Source: Candidatus Microgenomates bacterium
GTDB lineage: Bacteria > Patescibacteriota > Microgenomatia > JACQLA01
NCBI GenBank assembly: GCA_016204255.1
Contig: JACQLA010000003.1
Location: forward strand, 106,255-170,254
Direction: 5' to 3'
DNA: 64,000 nt
How positions within the stretch are numbered: position 1 is the first letter of the stretch; each line of letters begins with the position of its first letter. Position numbers and translations under genes: made by a program. This document shows positions 15,114 through 51,654 of this stretch, piece after piece. A model generated the notes under the pieces. That model did no database searches and was not told the DNA's origin. It saw only the letters and a program-made list of their open reading frames with translations.

Positions 15114-15128
15114 ATTTTTAAGGGCAAA

Positions 15129-15158
15129 CCGAGCGTTCTACCGATGAACTACACCCCG
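15129..15158 (-). other. 5' half of split tRNA-like gene X (acceptor 5' strand, D arm, anticodon-stem 5' strand)
   Basis: Reads CGGGGUG-UA-GUUC-AUCGGUA-GAAC-G-CUCGG. U8, GG in the D loop and a 4-bp D stem are all canonical. Confidence 0.55.
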
Positions 15159-15195
15159 CCGACTGCCAAGGAATTTGACGCTCAGCTACTTTTTG

Positions 15196-15280: not shown

Positions 15281-15354
15281 AAAAAATAATCCCTCGTGCC
15301 TGCCTTGTCGAAGCCTCCGGCGAAGGCAGGTCTACCAGTTCCACCACCGCGGCG
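15281..15354 (-). other. tRNA-Leu-like 5' fragment Z (acceptor/D-arm-like start, 8-bp hairpin, no T arm)
   Basis: Reads GCCGCGGUGGUGGAACUGGUAGAC (Leu-type 5' end), then CCUGCCUU-CGCCGGAGGCUUCGAC-AAGGCAGG, then GCACGAGGGAUUAUUUUUU. No T arm or acceptor 3' strand follows. Confidence 0.4.
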
Positions 15355-15472
15355 CAAAAGATTTGACGCGATCCAGTTGATCGCTAGTTCGCCTTTGGCG
15401 AAGAAATCTTTCGTGCTTGCCCCGTTAATTGCAAAGCAATTTTACGGGGTATACCGATTTCACCACCCCGGC
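15355..15472 (-). pseudogene. 5' fragment Y of tRNA-Leu(TAA) (positions 1 to about 45) with hairpin insertions in the D loop and anticodon loop
   Basis: Identical to the intact gene over GCCGGGGUGGUGAAAUCGGUAUA, CACGAAAGA and AAAUCUUUUG. Interrupted by a 34-nt hairpin (15415-15448) and a 39-nt double hairpin (15365-15403). Lacks variable arm, T arm and acceptor 3' strand. Confidence 0.6.
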
Positions 15473-15511
15473 CCGCCTAGACCCGCGTCGACGCGAGGCT
15501 AACTACGCCCC
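15473..15511 (-). other. tRNA-like 5' start (GGGGCGUAGUU) fused to a GC-rich palindromic module
   Basis: Reads GGGGCGUAGUU-AGCCUCG-CGUCGACG-CGGGUCUAGGCGGGC. The module shares AGCCUCG...CUAGGCGGG with the insertion at 39813-39844. Confidence 0.3.
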
Positions 15512-26182: not shown

Positions 26183-26303
26183 TGGTATAATTGACGAAGT
26201 CAATTAGTAGCTGAGTGAAGCGAGGCGTTTTAATTTGACGAAGTCAATTAACAGCCCGATACATCGGGTGCCTAATGTATTAGCCGCTTGAGGCGGTTTT
26301 TTT
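26183..26303 (+). promoter_or_regulatory. typA promoter/leader: extended -10, twin palindromes, short hairpin plus T7
   Basis: TGGTATAAT at 26183-26191. TTGACGAAGTCAA at 26191-26203 and again at 26235-26247. Hairpin CCCGAU-ACA-UCGGG. CCGC-UUGAG-GCGG followed by T7 (26284-26303), 12 nt before the typA ATG. Confidence 0.45.
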
Positions 26304-26314
26304 GTATAAATATC

Positions 26315-28153
26315 ATGATAAATATTCGTAATGTCGCAATCATCGCCCATGTTGACCATGGGAAAACAACGCTGGTTGATGCTCTTTTGAAGCAGTCCAA
26401 AACAAAGCTGCATAAGGACACCGCTGAGTCGTTGATCATGGACAGCAACGAGCTTGAACAGGAGCGGGGGATAACGATTTTTTCTAAAAATGCCTCTGTT
26501 ACCTGGAATGGACCCGCCTTGCCTGACGGAAGTCGAGGCAGGACAAAAATTAACATTATTGATACTCCGGGACATGCAGATTTTGGTGGGGAAGTGGAGC
26601 GCGTTTTGAAATTGGCTGATGGCTGTCTGCTTTTAATTGATGCCAAAGAAGGCCCCATGCCACAAACAAGATTCGTCTTAAAAAAAGCGCTTGAGATGGG
26701 GCACAAAATTATTGTTGTAGTCAACAAAATTGATAAATCCGATGCGCGAGTTCACTATGTGTTAGGCAAGACGCTGGATTTGTTTTTAGAACTTGGCGCC
26801 AATGATGATATTGCCGATTTTCCCATCGTTTATGCCAGCGCTAAGCAAGGAAAAGCGGGTTTGACTGAAAATCTTAGTAGCATGATAGATATTTCTCCAA
26901 TTTTTGATATGATCCTTAAACAGATCCCTGCTCCCTCCGGTGATGCCGCCAAACCCTTACAAATGCTTATAACCTCAATTACAAGCGACCCCCACCGCGG
27001 AAGAGTCGCAATCGGCAGAATCTATAACGGCTCAATTAAAAATGGTGGGGAAATTATACACATCAACCGGAACGCTGAAGCAAAAAGATATAAATTAACA
27101 TCCCTTTCAACATTTGAAGGGCTTGATAAATTCGAGGTAAACGAAGCTTCGGCCGGAGACATTGTGGCTGTCACCGGTATCCCCGAAATAACAATCGGAG
27201 AAACAATCACCGATCCGTCGGCACCCATGGCTCTACCGCTTATCGCCATCGAGGAACCAACTATTCAAATAAAGTTTATGGTTAACAATTCCCCCTTTGC
27301 TGGCAGGGAAGGGGAGTATAAAACTTCACGGGAAATAAGAGCAAGGCTTTATAAAGAACTTGAGACCGATGTTGCTCTCCGCGTTGAAGATGATGCAAAT
27401 GGGTGGATAGTCTCAGGAAGAGGAGAACTTCACTTAGCAATACTTATTGAACGATTACGGCGGGAAGGCTACGAATTTCAAGTAGCCCGACCCCAAGTGA
27501 TTGACAAAGTCATCGACGGAGAAAAGCTGACACCTTACGAGAGAGTAATCATCGAAACTCCTGAAGACTTTAGCGGCATAGTTATGCAAAAATTGGGAGA
27601 GCGGCGGGCGGAACTGCAGGATATGAAAGTGGAGAATGGCATAGCCTATTTGGAATTTGTGGTTTCAACTAAAGGGTTATTTGGCTATCGCAGTGAATTT
27701 ATGACCGATACCCGCGGCCTTGGCATTATTAACGCCACTTTTCATAAATATAACAAGGATAACGGTTATCAAAATGACAAAGATCACGGATCTTTAGTGG
27801 CGTTTGAAACTGGTACTACCCGGCTTTACGGCCTAACTAACGTTCAGGATAGGGGAGCGCTTTTTGTTGGACCTGGAATTGAAGTTTATAAAGGACAGGT
27901 GGTGGGACAAAATGCCAAAGGCGGGGATATCAGAGTTAATGTTTGTAAGACAAAAAATCTGACAAACATGCGATCAAAAGGGGAGGGAGTATCGGTATAT
28001 TTTAAAACACCAAAAAACATGGGCCTTGAAGACGCGCTTGAATATATCGCCGATGATGAGTTTGTGGAAGTTACCCCTGAAAATGTCCGGATAAGAAAAA
28101 TAATTTTAGATGAGGTTGAAGCCCGCCGCAAGCGCTCCCAGGGGATTCAATAA
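26315..28153 (+). CDS. typA: Translational GTPase TypA/BipA
   Basis: NVAIIAHVDHGKTTLVD, DTPGHADFGGEVER, NKIDK G-motifs, then EF-G-like domains. ATG 26315 is preferred over the TTG at 26288. Confidence 0.95.
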   Translation: MINIRNVAIIAHVDHGKTTLVDALLKQSKTKLHKDTAESLIMDSNELEQERGITIFSKNASVTWNGPALPDGSRGRTKINIIDTPGHADFGGEVERVLKLADGCLLLIDAKEGPMPQTRFVLKKALEMGHKIIVVVNKIDKSDARVHYVLGKTLDLFLELGANDDIADFPIVYASAKQGKAGLTENLSSMIDISPIFDMILKQIPAPSGDAAKPLQMLITSITSDPHRGRVAIGRIYNGSIKNGGEIIHINRNAEAKRYKLTSLSTFEGLDKFEVNEASAGDIVAVTGIPEITIGETITDPSAPMALPLIAIEEPTIQIKFMVNNSPFAGREGEYKTSREIRARLYKELETDVALRVEDDANGWIVSGRGELHLAILIERLRREGYEFQVARPQVIDKVIDGEKLTPYERVIIETPEDFSGIVMQKLGERRAELQDMKVENGIAYLEFVVSTKGLFGYRSEFMTDTRGLGIINATFHKYNKDNGYQNDKDHGSLVAFETGTTRLYGLTNVQDRGALFVGPGIEVYKGQVVGQNAKGGDIRVNVCKTKNLTNMRSKGEGVSVYFKTPKNMGLEDALEYIADDEFVEVTPENVRIRKIILDEVEARRKRSQGIQ

Positions 28154-35676: not shown

Positions 35677-35747
35677 AGCGGGTAACGGGAGTCGAACCCG
35701 TGCCTCGTCCTTGGCAAGGACGCATAATACCGCTATACTATACCCGC
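35677..35747 (-). tRNA. tRNA-Gly (GCC)
   Basis: Acceptor GCGGGUA/UACCCGC, anticodon arm CGUCC-UUGCCAA-GGACG, T arm ACGGG-UUCGACU-CCCGU. Confidence 0.9.
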
Positions 35748-36431
35748 ACGCTCCAATGCTTGGTTATATAAATTTATCCATTCAATAATTTTTTCTTTTA
35801 ATTCACGGCTATAAACTTGTATCGAACAAACTCCATGATCTACTTTTCTTTTTTTCTCTCTACCAAGAATATACTGAGATTTAACAAATTGTTCTTGCGA
35901 AACTCCAAGTATTTTACTCCAATATTCTTTACATATTTTTTCATTAAGGTCAGGGTAAAGAAGTAACCACAATCTAATTTTTCCTAATTGAATCTGGCAA
36001 CAAACTCTTAAAAAGGCGATAAAAATTTTTAGTAATCGATAATCAATATTAGAAATGCGCACTATTCCATTCTTTAGTCTTTTATCACCTTCTCCCCAAT
36101 AAATCATTAAACCAGGTCCAAAAAGCGGCATTGAGAACAACTTAGGGAATTCTTGGGTCGCTTGATTCCTATAGTTTAAATGAATTCTCCGCCACTTTTC
36201 CTTATTGGCTTGAGCCATTAATTTCAATTTCTCAATCGCTTTTTCCTGAGCCCGCTTTATTAAAACCTTCTTGACTCGAGATGAATAAACATCTGCCTTA
36301 AACCAGTTGGAAAGAGTGCTTTTAGGGATACCCAACTCTCGACTTATTGTGTTATAGCTTCTCTGTTTTTTTCGTAATGTAAAAGCCTTTTTTTTGAGTT
36401 TATTTTTATTTATTGAACTAACGTATGCCAT
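35733..36431 (-). CDS. HTH + LAGLIDADG-like putative homing endonuclease inside a tRNA array
   Basis: 232 aa. N-terminal HTH (RSYNTISRELGIPKSTLSNWF). GPGLMIYWGEGDK resembles a LAGLIDADG motif. The last 5 codons and the TAG stop lie inside tRNA-Gly(GCC). Family call is tentative. Confidence 0.5.
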   Translation of the reverse strand: MAYVSSINKNKLKKKAFTLRKKQRSYNTISRELGIPKSTLSNWFKADVYSSRVKKVLIKRAQEKAIEKLKLMAQANKEKWRRIHLNYRNQATQEFPKLFSMPLFGPGLMIYWGEGDKRLKNGIVRISNIDYRLLKIFIAFLRVCCQIQLGKIRLWLLLYPDLNEKICKEYWSKILGVSQEQFVKSQYILGREKKRKVDHGVCSIQVYSRELKEKIIEWINLYNQALERAGIV

Positions 36432-39398: not shown

Positions 39399-39483
39399 TG
39401 GTGCCGAAGGTGGGACTTGAACCCACACCCCTTGCGGGACACGGCCCTGAACCGTGCGCGTCTGCCAATTCCGCCACTTCGGC
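39399..39483 (-). tRNA. tRNA-Leu (CAG), class II, CCA encoded
   Basis: GCCGAAG-UG-GCG-GAAUUGGCAGA-CGC-G-CACGG-UUCAGGG-CCGUG, variable arm, GUGGG-UUCAAGU-CCCAC-CUUCGGC-ACCA. Confidence 0.9.
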
Positions 39484-39497
39484 CTGATAACTTAGTT

Positions 39498-39752
39498 TTA
39501 TTTTAAAACGTGCGTAAACAAATTTTTCTTCATCCAACGACGCCCTACAGCTGATTTAAAATATTTTTCTCTTTTGATTACTTCTTCTAAGGTAGCAAAA
39601 AAATCCGAATAAATAATTTCCCATGGTCTATATCGTTTACTGAAGATACTGTTGCCATTATTGTGTTGAATAAGTCTTCGTTCCAGGTTGTCTGTGTGAC
39701 CAACGTATGTTTTTTCAGCTACTCGACTTTTAAGAATATACACGACGTACAT
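39498..39752 (-). CDS. GIY-YIG nuclease-domain protein (UPF0213-like)
   Basis: 84 aa. VVYILKSRVAEKTYVGHTDNLERRLIQHN ... KREKYFK matches the GIY-(x10)-YVG, R and E/N positions of GIY-YIG. Confidence 0.85.
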   Translation of the reverse strand: MYVVYILKSRVAEKTYVGHTDNLERRLIQHNNGNSIFSKRYRPWEIIYSDFFATLEEVIKREKYFKSAVGRRWMKKNLFTHVLK

Positions 39753-39854
39753 TTGCGCGTCTACCCGCCTCGACTCGACCGACGTCGAGTGGGGCGAGGC
39801 GGGTCAATTCCGCCCGCCTAGCCTTGACGTCTAGTCGAGGCTGGCCACTTCGGC
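39753..39854 (-). pseudogene. 5' fragment of tRNA-Leu(CAG) (positions 1 to about 28) carrying two GC-rich hairpin insertions
   Basis: GCCGAAGUGG + 32-nt insert (39813-39844) + CGGAAUUG + 42-nt hairpin (39763-39804) + AGACGCGCA, then A-AUG of the GIY-YIG ORF. The three tRNA-derived blocks (27 nt) are identical to the intact gene 270 nt downstream. Confidence 0.65.
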
Positions 39855-39933
39855 TTACCGACCTAATTTTAACTCAGCCTTGGAAACTTGACAAGTTTTC
39901 ACAAATGTGTAACCATGAAGATTAAACAAAACC

Positions 39934-50839: not shown

Positions 50840-50960
50840 AATTTTTATCTTATGAAAGCTTTAATAACCTTTTTTGGATTTTGGTACTTTTTTACCCCTT
50901 GTCCAAGGGAGGTCAGATTGCTGGTAAAATAACCAAAATTTAAAAGACCAAGCAAAACAG

Positions 50961-50982
50961 CCTCCCAACCGGGAGGTTTTTT
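50961..50982 (+). terminator. Hairpin CCUCCC-AACC-GGGAGG + U6
   Basis: Seen in sequence. Same design as 47110 and 54865. Confidence 0.45.
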
Positions 50983-50997
50983 AGTGGTCGGAAGGGG

Positions 50998-51447: not shown

Positions 51448-51585
51448 TGTCATTTCGAGCCCCGATTAAATCGGGGCGAGAAATCTAACGAAGCCGTGTC
51501 TGATGTGGCGAAGCGTAAATTGCGGCACTTCGTGCCTACCTGCCTCGCAGCAAGGCGGGGATTTCTCATTTCATTCGAAATGACC
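51448..51585. repeat. Inverted-repeat element, long composite member
   Basis: TGTCATTTCGAGCCCCGATTAAATCGGGGCGAGAAATCTAACGAAG...GGGGATTTCTCATTTCATTCGAAATGAC, 138 bp. Confidence 0.7.
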
Positions 51586-51654
51586 AAAGCTATCAAACGC
51601 TTTTAATCTGCTGTTCTTGTGAGGCAGGCTATTTTTATGTTATCCTATGCGGGT

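Follow-up and report, generated by a model that had tools for sequence, protein, structure and literature searches.

A minimal GIY-YIG nuclease gene and companion palindromes at a split tRNA-Leu(CAG) gene: a probable selfish cassette of bacterial tRNA genes

In a 64,000-nucleotide (nt) stretch of contig JACQLA010000003.1 from a Candidatus Microgenomates bacterium (assembly GCA_016204255.1; the whole stretch is here called the window), a gene for an 84-amino-acid (aa) GIY-YIG nuclease lies between a split 5' fragment of a tRNA-Leu(CAG) gene and an intact copy of the same tRNA gene. In our reading, the locus is probably one representative of a widespread type of selfish cassette, which resides in tRNA genes, regenerates its target and is accompanied by palindromic elements, here termed H. 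What carries this reading is the anatomy of the locus, the recurrence of its layout across a family of related loci, empty sites at orthologous tRNA genes, the precise insertion of H in either orientation, and the lineage of the nuclease.

Read along the minus strand, the locus comprises the split tRNA 5' fragment, the open reading frame (ORF) of the nuclease, a 14-nt spacer and the intact tRNA-Leu(CAG), preceded by a promoter-like site:

39866..39894, minus strand: promoter-like site TTGTCA-17 nt-TAAAAT (consensus scan, 10/12 matches), ending 11 nt 5' of the fragment
39845..39854, minus strand: displaced tRNA-Leu(CAG) block 1, positions 1-10, GCCGAAGTGG, identical to the intact tRNA
39813..39844, unstranded: insert 1, a 32-nt palindromic element H of subfamily B, CCAGCCTCGACTAG...CTAGGCGGG, between tRNA positions 10 and 11 by flank mapping
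39805..39812, minus strand: displaced tRNA block 2, positions 11-18, CGGAATTG, identical to the intact tRNA
39763..39804, unstranded: insert 2, a 42-nt palindromic element H of subfamily A, A-CCCGCCTCG...GAGTCGAGGCGGG-T, replacing D-loop positions 19-20
39754..39762, minus strand: displaced tRNA block 3, positions 21-29, AGACGCGCA, identical to the intact tRNA
39753, minus strand: extra A between block 3 and the ATG
39498..39752, minus strand: stand-alone GIY-YIG nuclease gene, 84 aa, predicted Slx1/UPF0213 type, with its ATG at 39752 and its stop ending at 39498
39484..39497, minus strand: 14-nt spacer from stop codon to tRNA
39399..39483, minus strand: intact tRNA-Leu(CAG) (ARAGORN; Rfam RF00005, 52.3 bits)

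An earlier, sequence-only reading of this DNA had proposed the three tRNA-identical blocks, the GC-rich inserts of 32 and 42 nt, the nuclease ORF, the spacer and the intact tRNA, and all of these were confirmed. BLAST recovers the first two blocks as tRNA positions 1-11 and 9-18, an overlap that leaves the limits of insert 1 uncertain by three letters, GGC. The chained exact blocks sum to 27 nt of tRNA positions 1-29; shuffling the 102-nt segment 20,000 times never produced a match of this length, and the best score among the 6,156 other 102-nt windows of the 64-kb sequence is 17. Self-blocks of at least 8 nt within the 450 nt upstream were found for only two of the 13 tRNAs of the window, Leu(CAG) and Leu(TAA). 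The fragment segment is also compositionally distinct, with 66% G+C (0.66) versus 0.40 across the window. The consensus scan found no promoter-like site in the spacer or in the 3' part of the ORF, and TTGTCA-17-TAAAAT is, judging by its sequence, presumed to be the original tRNA-Leu(CAG) promoter, now driving fragment, ORF and tRNA. This placement, together with about 50 similar loci described below, agrees with the earlier proposal of a displaced 5' part followed by cargo and a regenerated tRNA. An integrase, likewise claimed to be missing, is indeed absent in and near the locus: the neighbouring genes encode no integrase domain, and the sole ORF between the tRNA repeats is that of the 84-aa nuclease, which is single-copy in the window. 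Rfam scans of the locus (E-value up to 10) and of the whole window returned tRNAs and chance matches only (a mir-2816-like hairpin, Prevotella-2), with no intron, ribozyme or leader family.

The ORF product matches the Pfam GIY-YIG domain (PF01541, E-value 1.1e-17) over residues 1-76, its sole Pfam domain, and residues Y5, Y16, G18, R26, H30 and E62 are invariant among 23 homologues. When a profile of these homologues was compared with the PDB, the strongest matches were EF2693 (1ywl, E-value 3.9e-12) and BH0048 (1zg2, 4e-10), with Slx1 at about 1e-4 and I-TevI at 0.03. An AlphaFold model of the protein (predicted local distance difference test, pLDDT, 93) was closest to UPF0213 and Slx1 in Foldseek searches: the nuclease domains of 1zg2 and Slx1 superposed with query TM-scores (TMq) of 0.63-0.69 at 2.1-2.9 Å over about 73 residues, with I-TevI (0.56) and UvrC (0.48) behind them. 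NCBIfam held nothing above cut-off for the protein (best model grpIintron_endo, 20.8 bits against a cut-off of 56), DNA-binding modules of the NUMOD or helix-turn-helix (HTH) type were not found in what is a catalytic domain only, and a phage collection yielded merely weak matches, with at most 37% identity to the ORF. By profile and predicted structure, the protein is a minimal stand-alone GIY-YIG nuclease of the Slx1/UPF0213 type and not a multi-domain homing endonuclease; such a minimal Slx1-like form, lacking auxiliary modules, was described by Dunin-Horkawicz et al. (PMC1564403). The likeness to SegB of phage T4 drawn in the sequence-only reading holds in part: SegB is a fair functional analogue (PMC13096335), whereas the protein is not of the SegB/I-TevI type with DNA-binding modules.

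The association with tRNA genes extends across the family. A scan of one genome per species yielded 479 loci encoding relatives of the ORF, and the best 80 of these, from Patescibacteria, Bacteroidota and Ignavibacteria, were analysed; single loci are cited by labels such as L028. A same-strand tRNA lies within 60 nt of 72 of the 80 relatives, at loci where the density of other tRNAs is 0.022 per kb. The ORF ends between -38 and +60 nt relative to the tRNA's 5' end in 57 loci and starts no more than 60 nt after the tRNA in 15; the remaining 8, with neither arrangement, mostly reach contig ends or have an H-interrupted tRNA that ARAGORN cannot call. The partners 3' of the ORF are tRNAs for Leu (all five anticodons), Gln, Asn, Arg (five anticodons), Ala and Thr, and those 5' of it are Arg(CCT), Arg(CCG), Leu and Lys. 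As a control, a metagenome scan with the tRNA anticodon arm, which returned mostly unrelated bacteria and yielded one syntenic empty site, gave 77 tRNA-Leu(CAG) loci sharing that arm, and none had such an ORF upstream.

The displaced fragment recurs as well, and most loci hold a second copy of the partner tRNA, partial or complete. At about 50 loci, the ATG is preceded by 60-115 nt that correspond to the 5' part of the downstream tRNA, beginning with position 1 and split by H. In those Bacteroidota loci that have the tRNA ahead of the ORF, what comes after the ORF is a second copy, either a full-length tRNA with H in the D-loop, sometimes also in the T-loop, or a 3' fragment with H in the T-arm. 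In every case examined, tRNA repeats flank the ORF, one within an intact tRNA and the other bearing H; an intact tRNA copy accompanies every H-bearing copy, and several H-bearing copies are decaying (e.g. L073, L074). Tandem arrays of up to four units occur before a single tRNA, with copies that are identical or share 39-85% aa identity, and these arrays include truncated or degenerate ORFs.

These patterns bear on the alternative that the ORF is a host repair or replication-conflict nuclease retained in tRNA operons for the sake of co-expression, with fragments produced by slippage or unequal crossing-over and H being unrelated repeats, like miniature inverted-repeat transposable elements (MITEs), that gather by chance in neutral DNA. 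Prokaryotic Slx1-like proteins have indeed been proposed to act in repair and have been linked to tRNA-modifying methyltransferases (PMC1564403), and the ORFs are intact and conserved at 45-69% identity. However, the tRNA partner varies widely, the occupancy of orthologous tRNAs differs among related genomes (see below), and the tandem arrays contain decayed copies. Moreover, 11 of the 13 window tRNAs have no self-fragment, the 77 control loci have no ORF upstream, and H is found in every ORF-adjacent fragment at a position coupled to the ATG. With these observations we consider a resident host gene improbable.

Some details of the ORF/tRNA junctions are recorded here as side observations. The 3' end of the ORF lies inside the tRNA with an overlap of 10 nt in L028, L029, L034, L038, L051 and L057, of 23 nt in L031, L033, L054 and L058, and of 36-38 nt in L017, L024, L026 and L030. 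The stop codon of the overlapping ORFs is often the conserved U8-A9-G10 (TAG) of the tRNA, and C-terminal tails such as AEVAER and RPRGATE come from translation of the tRNA; if RNase P cleaves at tRNA +1, the mRNA of such ORFs would lose its stop codon. At L042 (~2744-2790), a tRNA-Asn-like sequence after the ORF stops within the anticodon loop, after CTGT. By analogy with the patescibacterial introns described in PMC13011429, a group I intron inserted at 35/36 could leave a break of this kind.

Comparison of tRNA-Leu(CAG) loci in related genomes, suggested in the sequence-only reading as a search for empty sites, did bring such sites to light. The window, L210/L211 and L146 share a gene order of tRNA-Leu(TAG), two paralogous genes (198 and 199 aa), tRNA-Leu(CAG), tRNA-Leu(GAG), Val, Phe and Gly, and the neighbour protein is 72% identical to that of the window in L210/L211 and 40% in L146. 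Both L210/L211 and L146 have an intact tRNA-Leu(CAG) with no ORF, fragment or H. In L146 this tRNA begins 72 nt from the neighbouring gene, behind TTGTCA-17-TAGAAT; in the window the fragment begins 79 nt from that gene, behind TTGTCA-17-TAAAAT. The fragment of the window sits at the start point of the ancestral tRNA. Conversely, L210 has its own tRNA-Phe preceded by a fragment of that tRNA, a hairpin and a GIY-YIG ORF, another GIY-YIG ORF before tRNA-Gln, and ORF-less fragments with hairpins before tRNA-Leu(GAG) and tRNA-Gly. Hence cassette occupancy differs between orthologous tRNAs of related genomes. A separate feature of L210, the closest relative, (60-204) is a ~39-nt unit with a TATAAT-like box, gtataattgagtcatcaatta[g/a]acaag..., tandemly duplicated 5' of the empty tRNA-Leu(CAG); because of this duplication the distance from neighbouring gene to tRNA is ~200 nt instead of 72-79.

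The two inserts of the fragment belong to a population of related palindromes, of which we collected 71 distinct sequences of 23-62 nt near the ORFs of the 80 loci. The ends of H are conserved, in outline as CCCGCC...GGCGGG; they read CCCGCC(T/C)CG...CGAGGCGGG in Patescibacteria and CCCGCCCG...CGGGCGGG in Bacteroidota, and those of a second subfamily (B) are CCAGCCTCGACTAG...CTAGGCGG. Insert 1 is identical at 30 of 32 positions to a subfamily-B element of L025, with related copies in L027 and L036 and, by eye, elements of its type in L006 and L012. Insert 2 shows 85% identity to subfamily-A copies of L015, L043, L045 and L052, and has no other copy in the window at up to 3 mismatches. At least five H copies are present in the window, where they outnumber the ORFs, and H is found in every fragment adjoining an ORF. 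The interior of H beyond the terminal repeats is neither conserved nor significantly structured.

When the flanks of about 55 H copies were mapped on the intact tRNA, the end of the left flank met the start of the right flank exactly, and H insertion is therefore precise, with neither duplication nor loss; no target-site duplication was found among these copies. The sites fall at tRNA positions 7, 9-11, 15, 17-19, 21-23, 50, 55, 61 and 65-67, mainly in loops and at helix junctions. A cognate transposase, whether of an insertion sequence (IS) or of the type associated with repetitive extragenic palindromes (REPs; RAYT), is absent from the loci, and the only recurrent neighbour is the GIY-YIG ORF. 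Terminal inverted repeats, many copies in many genomes and insertion polymorphism are features that H shares with the class of elements that includes MITEs, REPs and Rickettsia palindromic elements (RPEs). In addition, two to four H copies stand head to tail at one tRNA position, in the T-loop or D-loop (L050, 2789-2900; L067, 2750-2840; L062, 2249-2312), so that H can multiply in tandem at a single site.

The preference for loops and helix junctions might recall introns, and the H-interrupted copies could then be intron-like precursors from which the GIY-YIG protein removes H, or else the whole might be the remnant of an integrase island or group I intron. Slx1-like domains are sometimes fused to tRNA methyltransferases (PMC1564403), and patescibacterial tRNAs often contain group I introns (PMC13011429). 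Against this stand the intact copy beside every H-bearing copy, the decay of several of the latter, and the duplication of the 5' end followed by a complete tRNA after the ORF; ribozyme and intron models match none of the locus, and no integrase is encoded in or near it. We hold these possibilities to be the least probable of those weighed. Two specific candidates were accordingly set aside: an integrase-mediated element, for which the tRNA direct repeat and the intact tRNA were found and an encoded tyrosine or serine recombinase was not, and a group I intron in the tRNA gene, for which no intron model matched even at an E-value of up to 10 and which would not be followed by a complete tRNA after the ORF.

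The folding of the fragment was also considered. Insert 2 has an outer 10-bp stem and, as had been proposed, an inner ACTCGAC/GTCGAGT stem; its RNA energy is -30.7 kcal/mol (z-score -5.4) and its DNA energy -19.7 (z-score -5.4) on either strand. Many H copies resemble insert 2 in forming a strong hairpin on either strand, and insert 1 alone is a weak hairpin. In the minimum-energy fold, inserts 1 and 2 each fold on themselves; the pairing of AGGCGGG with CCCGCCU between the inserts, suggested earlier, is possible on paper and lies outside that fold. The further suggestion that the fragment had been remodelled into a multi-hairpin leader did not survive the comparisons, as the inserts are copies of two conserved palindromic subfamilies that occur in both orientations and also away from any ORF. 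The leader idea, in which fragment and hairpins are a selected functional RNA leader (a tRNA mimic, stabiliser or regulator) controlling translation of the ORF, could draw on the stable fold of the whole leader RNA (-56.5 kcal/mol, z-score -3.4) and on the location of H 7-32 nt before the ATG. Yet H is not fixed in orientation with respect to tRNA and ORF: subfamily-A copies divide 15 versus 9, and copies of the Bacteroidota 32-mer 2 versus 6, which excludes an oriented RNA leader and favours insertion at the DNA level. H is also found 3' of ORFs, in the T-loops of pseudo-tRNAs, in ORF-less arrays and in a protein-coding gene, no Rfam family was matched, and the interior of H, inside the terminal repeats, is neither conserved nor structured. 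A leader function as the explanation of the locus is therefore very unlikely.

The position of H is nevertheless tied to the ORF. The distance from H to the ATG, measured in 39 loci, ranges over 7-32 nt and is mostly 9-21 (10 nt in the window), irrespective of the tRNA position N at which H stands; beyond H the tRNA continues as far as about N+6 to N+16. This near-constant gap implies that the H site and the fragment end depend on each other: H is either the cassette's 5' border or, with the fragment end, the mark of a single break site. A separate observation concerns sequencing: in L206 and L207, from the strain of the window, contigs of two independent assemblies both stop at exactly CGGAATTG, which borders insert 2; this suggests that the GC-rich palindrome breaks short-read assemblies.

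A selfish cassette that regenerates its target would account for this anatomy as follows. The cassette would consist of a gene of about 80-90 aa for a Slx1/UPF0213-type GIY-YIG nuclease, the 3' end of which is fused to a copy of the 5' segment of a tRNA gene. The nuclease might cut tRNA-gene DNA at motifs of the D-arm or T-arm, as phage SegB does, and the cassette would then enter tRNA-Leu(CAG) by break-induced, recombination-dependent copying, akin to homing, with a crossover located within the tRNA. Joined to the resident 3' part, the 5' segment brought by the cassette would restore a functional tRNA, while the resident 5' segment (1-29) would be stranded upstream together with its promoter, from which ORF and tRNA would be expressed as one transcript. 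H would occupy the redundant copy of the cut motifs (here at the 10/11 junction and at 18-21), destroying the site and splitting the direct repeat; were H inserted into the functional tRNA, the outcome would be lethal, and no such case was observed. The cleavage specificity, the repair pathway, co-transcription and mobility in this scheme are what the layout suggests, and H may have arrived with the cassette or afterwards.

Two further places in the window show H and tRNA fragments away from the ORF:

26513..26542, unstranded: in-frame 30-nt solo H in a typA/bipA-like GTPase gene (ORF 26288-28153, plus strand)
15281..15511, minus strand: ORF-less array of tRNA 5' fragments and three hairpins upstream of tRNA-Leu(TAA)

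The typA copy, like insert 1 a weak hairpin, adds ten residues to the G domain, VTWNG[PALPDGSRGR]TKINIIDTPGH, and is identical at 29 of 30 positions to the H in a tRNA-Arg fragment of a Winogradskyella locus (L031). Among 117 close TypA homologues, 100 lack an insert and 13 have 5-16 extra residues at that spot. A 30-nt H is present at the same typA codon boundary in a Levybacteria genome (L203), in the opposite orientation at the DNA level, which indicates independent, site-specific insertions. Between the typA target, TGGAATG(G/A)N, and the sequence GGCGGAAT(T/G)G at which H sits in Leu D-loops there is a likeness, which is suggestive only. Targeting of H by the tRNA cloverleaf structure alone was considered and rejected, as the typA insertions argue for a component of DNA sequence.

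The array upstream of tRNA-Leu(TAA) comprises three units and no detectable GIY-YIG similarity: GGGGCGTAG with a 30-nt H-like (B-like) palindrome; tRNA positions 1-24 with a 29-nt hairpin, CCCGTAAAATTGC...TAACGGGG, followed by positions 25-33 and a degenerate anticodon arm; and another Leu-type 5' fragment with a 32-nt H, CCTGCCTTCG...CAAGGCAGG. A hairpin of the type of the second unit, 'CCCCGT...TAACGGGG caag', was also seen before tRNA-Leu(GAG) in L210.

The solitary and protein-coding copies of H raise the question of how H itself moves. It is conceivable, if clearly tentative, that the nuclease and H form a two-part mobile system free of any transposase, in which the minimal Slx1-like enzyme would cut conserved motifs of tRNA genes and similar sites, among them the GGAATGG of typA, and the breaks would be sealed by one or the other part. 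Sealing would come about in one of two ways: the ORF cassette is copied in along with the tRNA 5' segment that it carries as a replacement, or H is inserted by a templated process. H would then act as a permanent 'patch' immunising non-essential copies of the site. A contrasting possibility is that H is the real mobile unit and the substrate of the nuclease, as a cruciform or hairpin, so that breaks at H, beside tRNA sequence, provoke a local SegB-like segmental duplication that amplifies the ORF as well, while the tRNA genes stay uncut. In its favour, Slx1 relatives are structure-specific nucleases (PDB descriptions; PMC1564403), strong hairpins can form on both strands of insert 2 and of many other H copies, H is more numerous than the ORFs in the window and is also solitary, tandem H copies stand at one site in L050, L062 and L067, and amplification of the SegB type is documented. 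However, cutting at H would break the H-bearing allele and favour loss of H by conversion, and the hairpins of insert 1 and of the typA copy are weak. Nor would it explain how H first came to be placed so precisely in tRNA and typA sequence, or why the ORF adjoins tRNA position 1 in 57 loci. We consider this explanation unlikely.

Several considerations nonetheless weigh against a selfish tRNA-gene cassette as proposed here. Every mechanistic step is drawn from sequence and analogy. How an 84-aa domain devoid of a DNA-binding module would find tRNA genes is unexplained, and a single sequence motif common to the H sites was not found. The intact tRNA retains the motifs that are supposedly cut, so that self-cleavage would call for faithful repair or low activity, and the homology arms within the tRNA, at 7-29 nt, are short for RecA-type recombination. 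H was found by a pattern requiring paired ends, which makes the palindrome statistics partly circular. Exact look-ups of the ORF and its neighbouring gene detected no polymorphism within the strain, its contigs being identical or stopping short; and as the empty sites come from other species, loss instead of gain is possible at this locus.

Other features of the window were noted in passing. A hairpin-free tRNA-like 5' half, GGCGGGGTGTAGTTCATCGGTAGAACGCTCGGTTTGCCC, the source of which is not tRNA-Pro, lies directly 5' of tRNA-Pro(TGG) at 15122-15160 (minus strand). At 51539-51628 a short H-like hairpin, CCTGCCTCGCAGCAAGGCGGGG, is enclosed in a 90-nt inverted repeat, CCTGCCTC...GAGGCAGG, with no tRNA or GIY-YIG ORF near it, and at 50855-50986 (plus strand) there is a sub-threshold match to the Rfam Phe leader (44.9 bits, with the gathering score at 55; E-value 3e-4). 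Between tRNA-Phe and tRNA-Gly(GCC), a 232-aa ORF (35733-36431, minus strand) with only weak HTH matches overlaps the 5' end of tRNA-Gly by its last 15 nt; it is unrelated to the GIY-YIG ORF, and the corresponding spot of L210 is 154 nt long and ORF-free.

A description of this architecture was not found in the searchable full-text literature, where absence is no proof of novelty, and a recent survey of tRNA introns in Patescibacteria (PMC13011429) does not mention it; it looks like an undescribed kind of selfish DNA. If the cassette interpretation is true, many small genes annotated as 'GIY-YIG nuclease family protein' in Patescibacteria and Bacteroidota would be explained as a selfish element dwelling in tRNA genes, and the spare 5' end would be a third route into an essential RNA gene, besides introns and integrases. 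It would also tie a stand-alone Slx1-type nuclease to a conserved palindrome that enters protein-coding genes in frame, and would imply an enzyme of some 80 aa with an apparent specificity for tRNA-gene DNA. The two-part system, were it real, would constitute a new mode of DNA movement, with a gene-sized parasite in an essential RNA gene in the absence of an intron. On the practical side, tRNA finders miss H-interrupted tRNA copies, and the palindromes may break assemblies. Several carriers are cultured flavobacteria, such as Leeuwenhoekiella blandensis MED217, Winogradskyella jejuensis DSM 25330 and Pseudozobellia thermophila DSM 19858, and the model is therefore open to direct testing.

Among known systems, the integrative elements of tRNA genes encode a recombinase of the tyrosine or serine type and regenerate the tRNA, in which it is usually the 3' part that they exchange. 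The present locus is similar in that a direct tRNA repeat flanks the element, one copy lies within the intact tRNA and the replacement part is carried along; it differs in that the window shows no recombinase, a cargo of merely 255 nt and a duplicated 5' part. In intron homing of the I-TevI type, insertion at the cleavage site protects the carrier allele. The logic of a protective insertion would be shared, whereas here there is neither intron nor splicing and the replacement 5' segment would keep the target functional. RPEs and the GC clusters of yeast mitochondria are short GC-rich palindromes that spread in genomes and can be inserted in frame into genes. The former, mentioned in PMC1779305, and the latter resemble H in the in-frame insertion into a protein-coding gene, as in typA. 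Unlike them, H is tied to one nuclease family and to tRNA sequence, causes no target-site duplication and is common to several phyla, with 29/30 identity between Microgenomates and Winogradskyella.

The closest functional parallel is SegB. SegB of phages T4 and T6 is a free-standing GIY-YIG homing endonuclease in a tRNA gene cluster (PMC2330249; PMC13096335); it cuts inside tRNA genes at RAWTSGAAC, a motif coding for the T-loop, is enriched next to tRNAs of many isotypes, and drives a recombination-dependent tandem amplification of tRNA and segB through microhomology shared by the tRNA's 5' end and segB's 3' end (PMC13096335). The cassette shares with it the tRNA association, with a GIY-YIG gene between or beside tRNA genes and not in an intron, and the amplified unit resembles the tandem arrays and ORF/tRNA overlaps reported here. 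As for the wider Seg family of homing genes, presence and absence at orthologous sites were observed (L210/L211, L146) and DNA-binding modules were not. SegB, however, is multi-domain, phage-encoded and of the homing endonuclease/UvrC lineage, as opposed to a chromosomal catalytic domain of Slx1/UPF0213 type, and the accessible text on SegB describes neither a palindromic companion nor a systematic layout of displaced fragment and regenerated tRNA. With the UPF0213 proteins EF2693 (1ywl) and BH0048 (1zg2) and with Slx1, the protein shares sequence, fold and a minimal domain lacking auxiliary modules, whereas these are discussed as repair or structure-specific nucleases, with no description of a link to tRNA genes, mobility or a palindrome partner (PMC1564403). 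Free-standing nuclease genes at tRNA loci are thus a known kind; the stand-alone Slx1-type nuclease, the carried 5' segment that regenerates the target and the obligatory palindrome companion, which enters a protein-coding gene as well, would be new.

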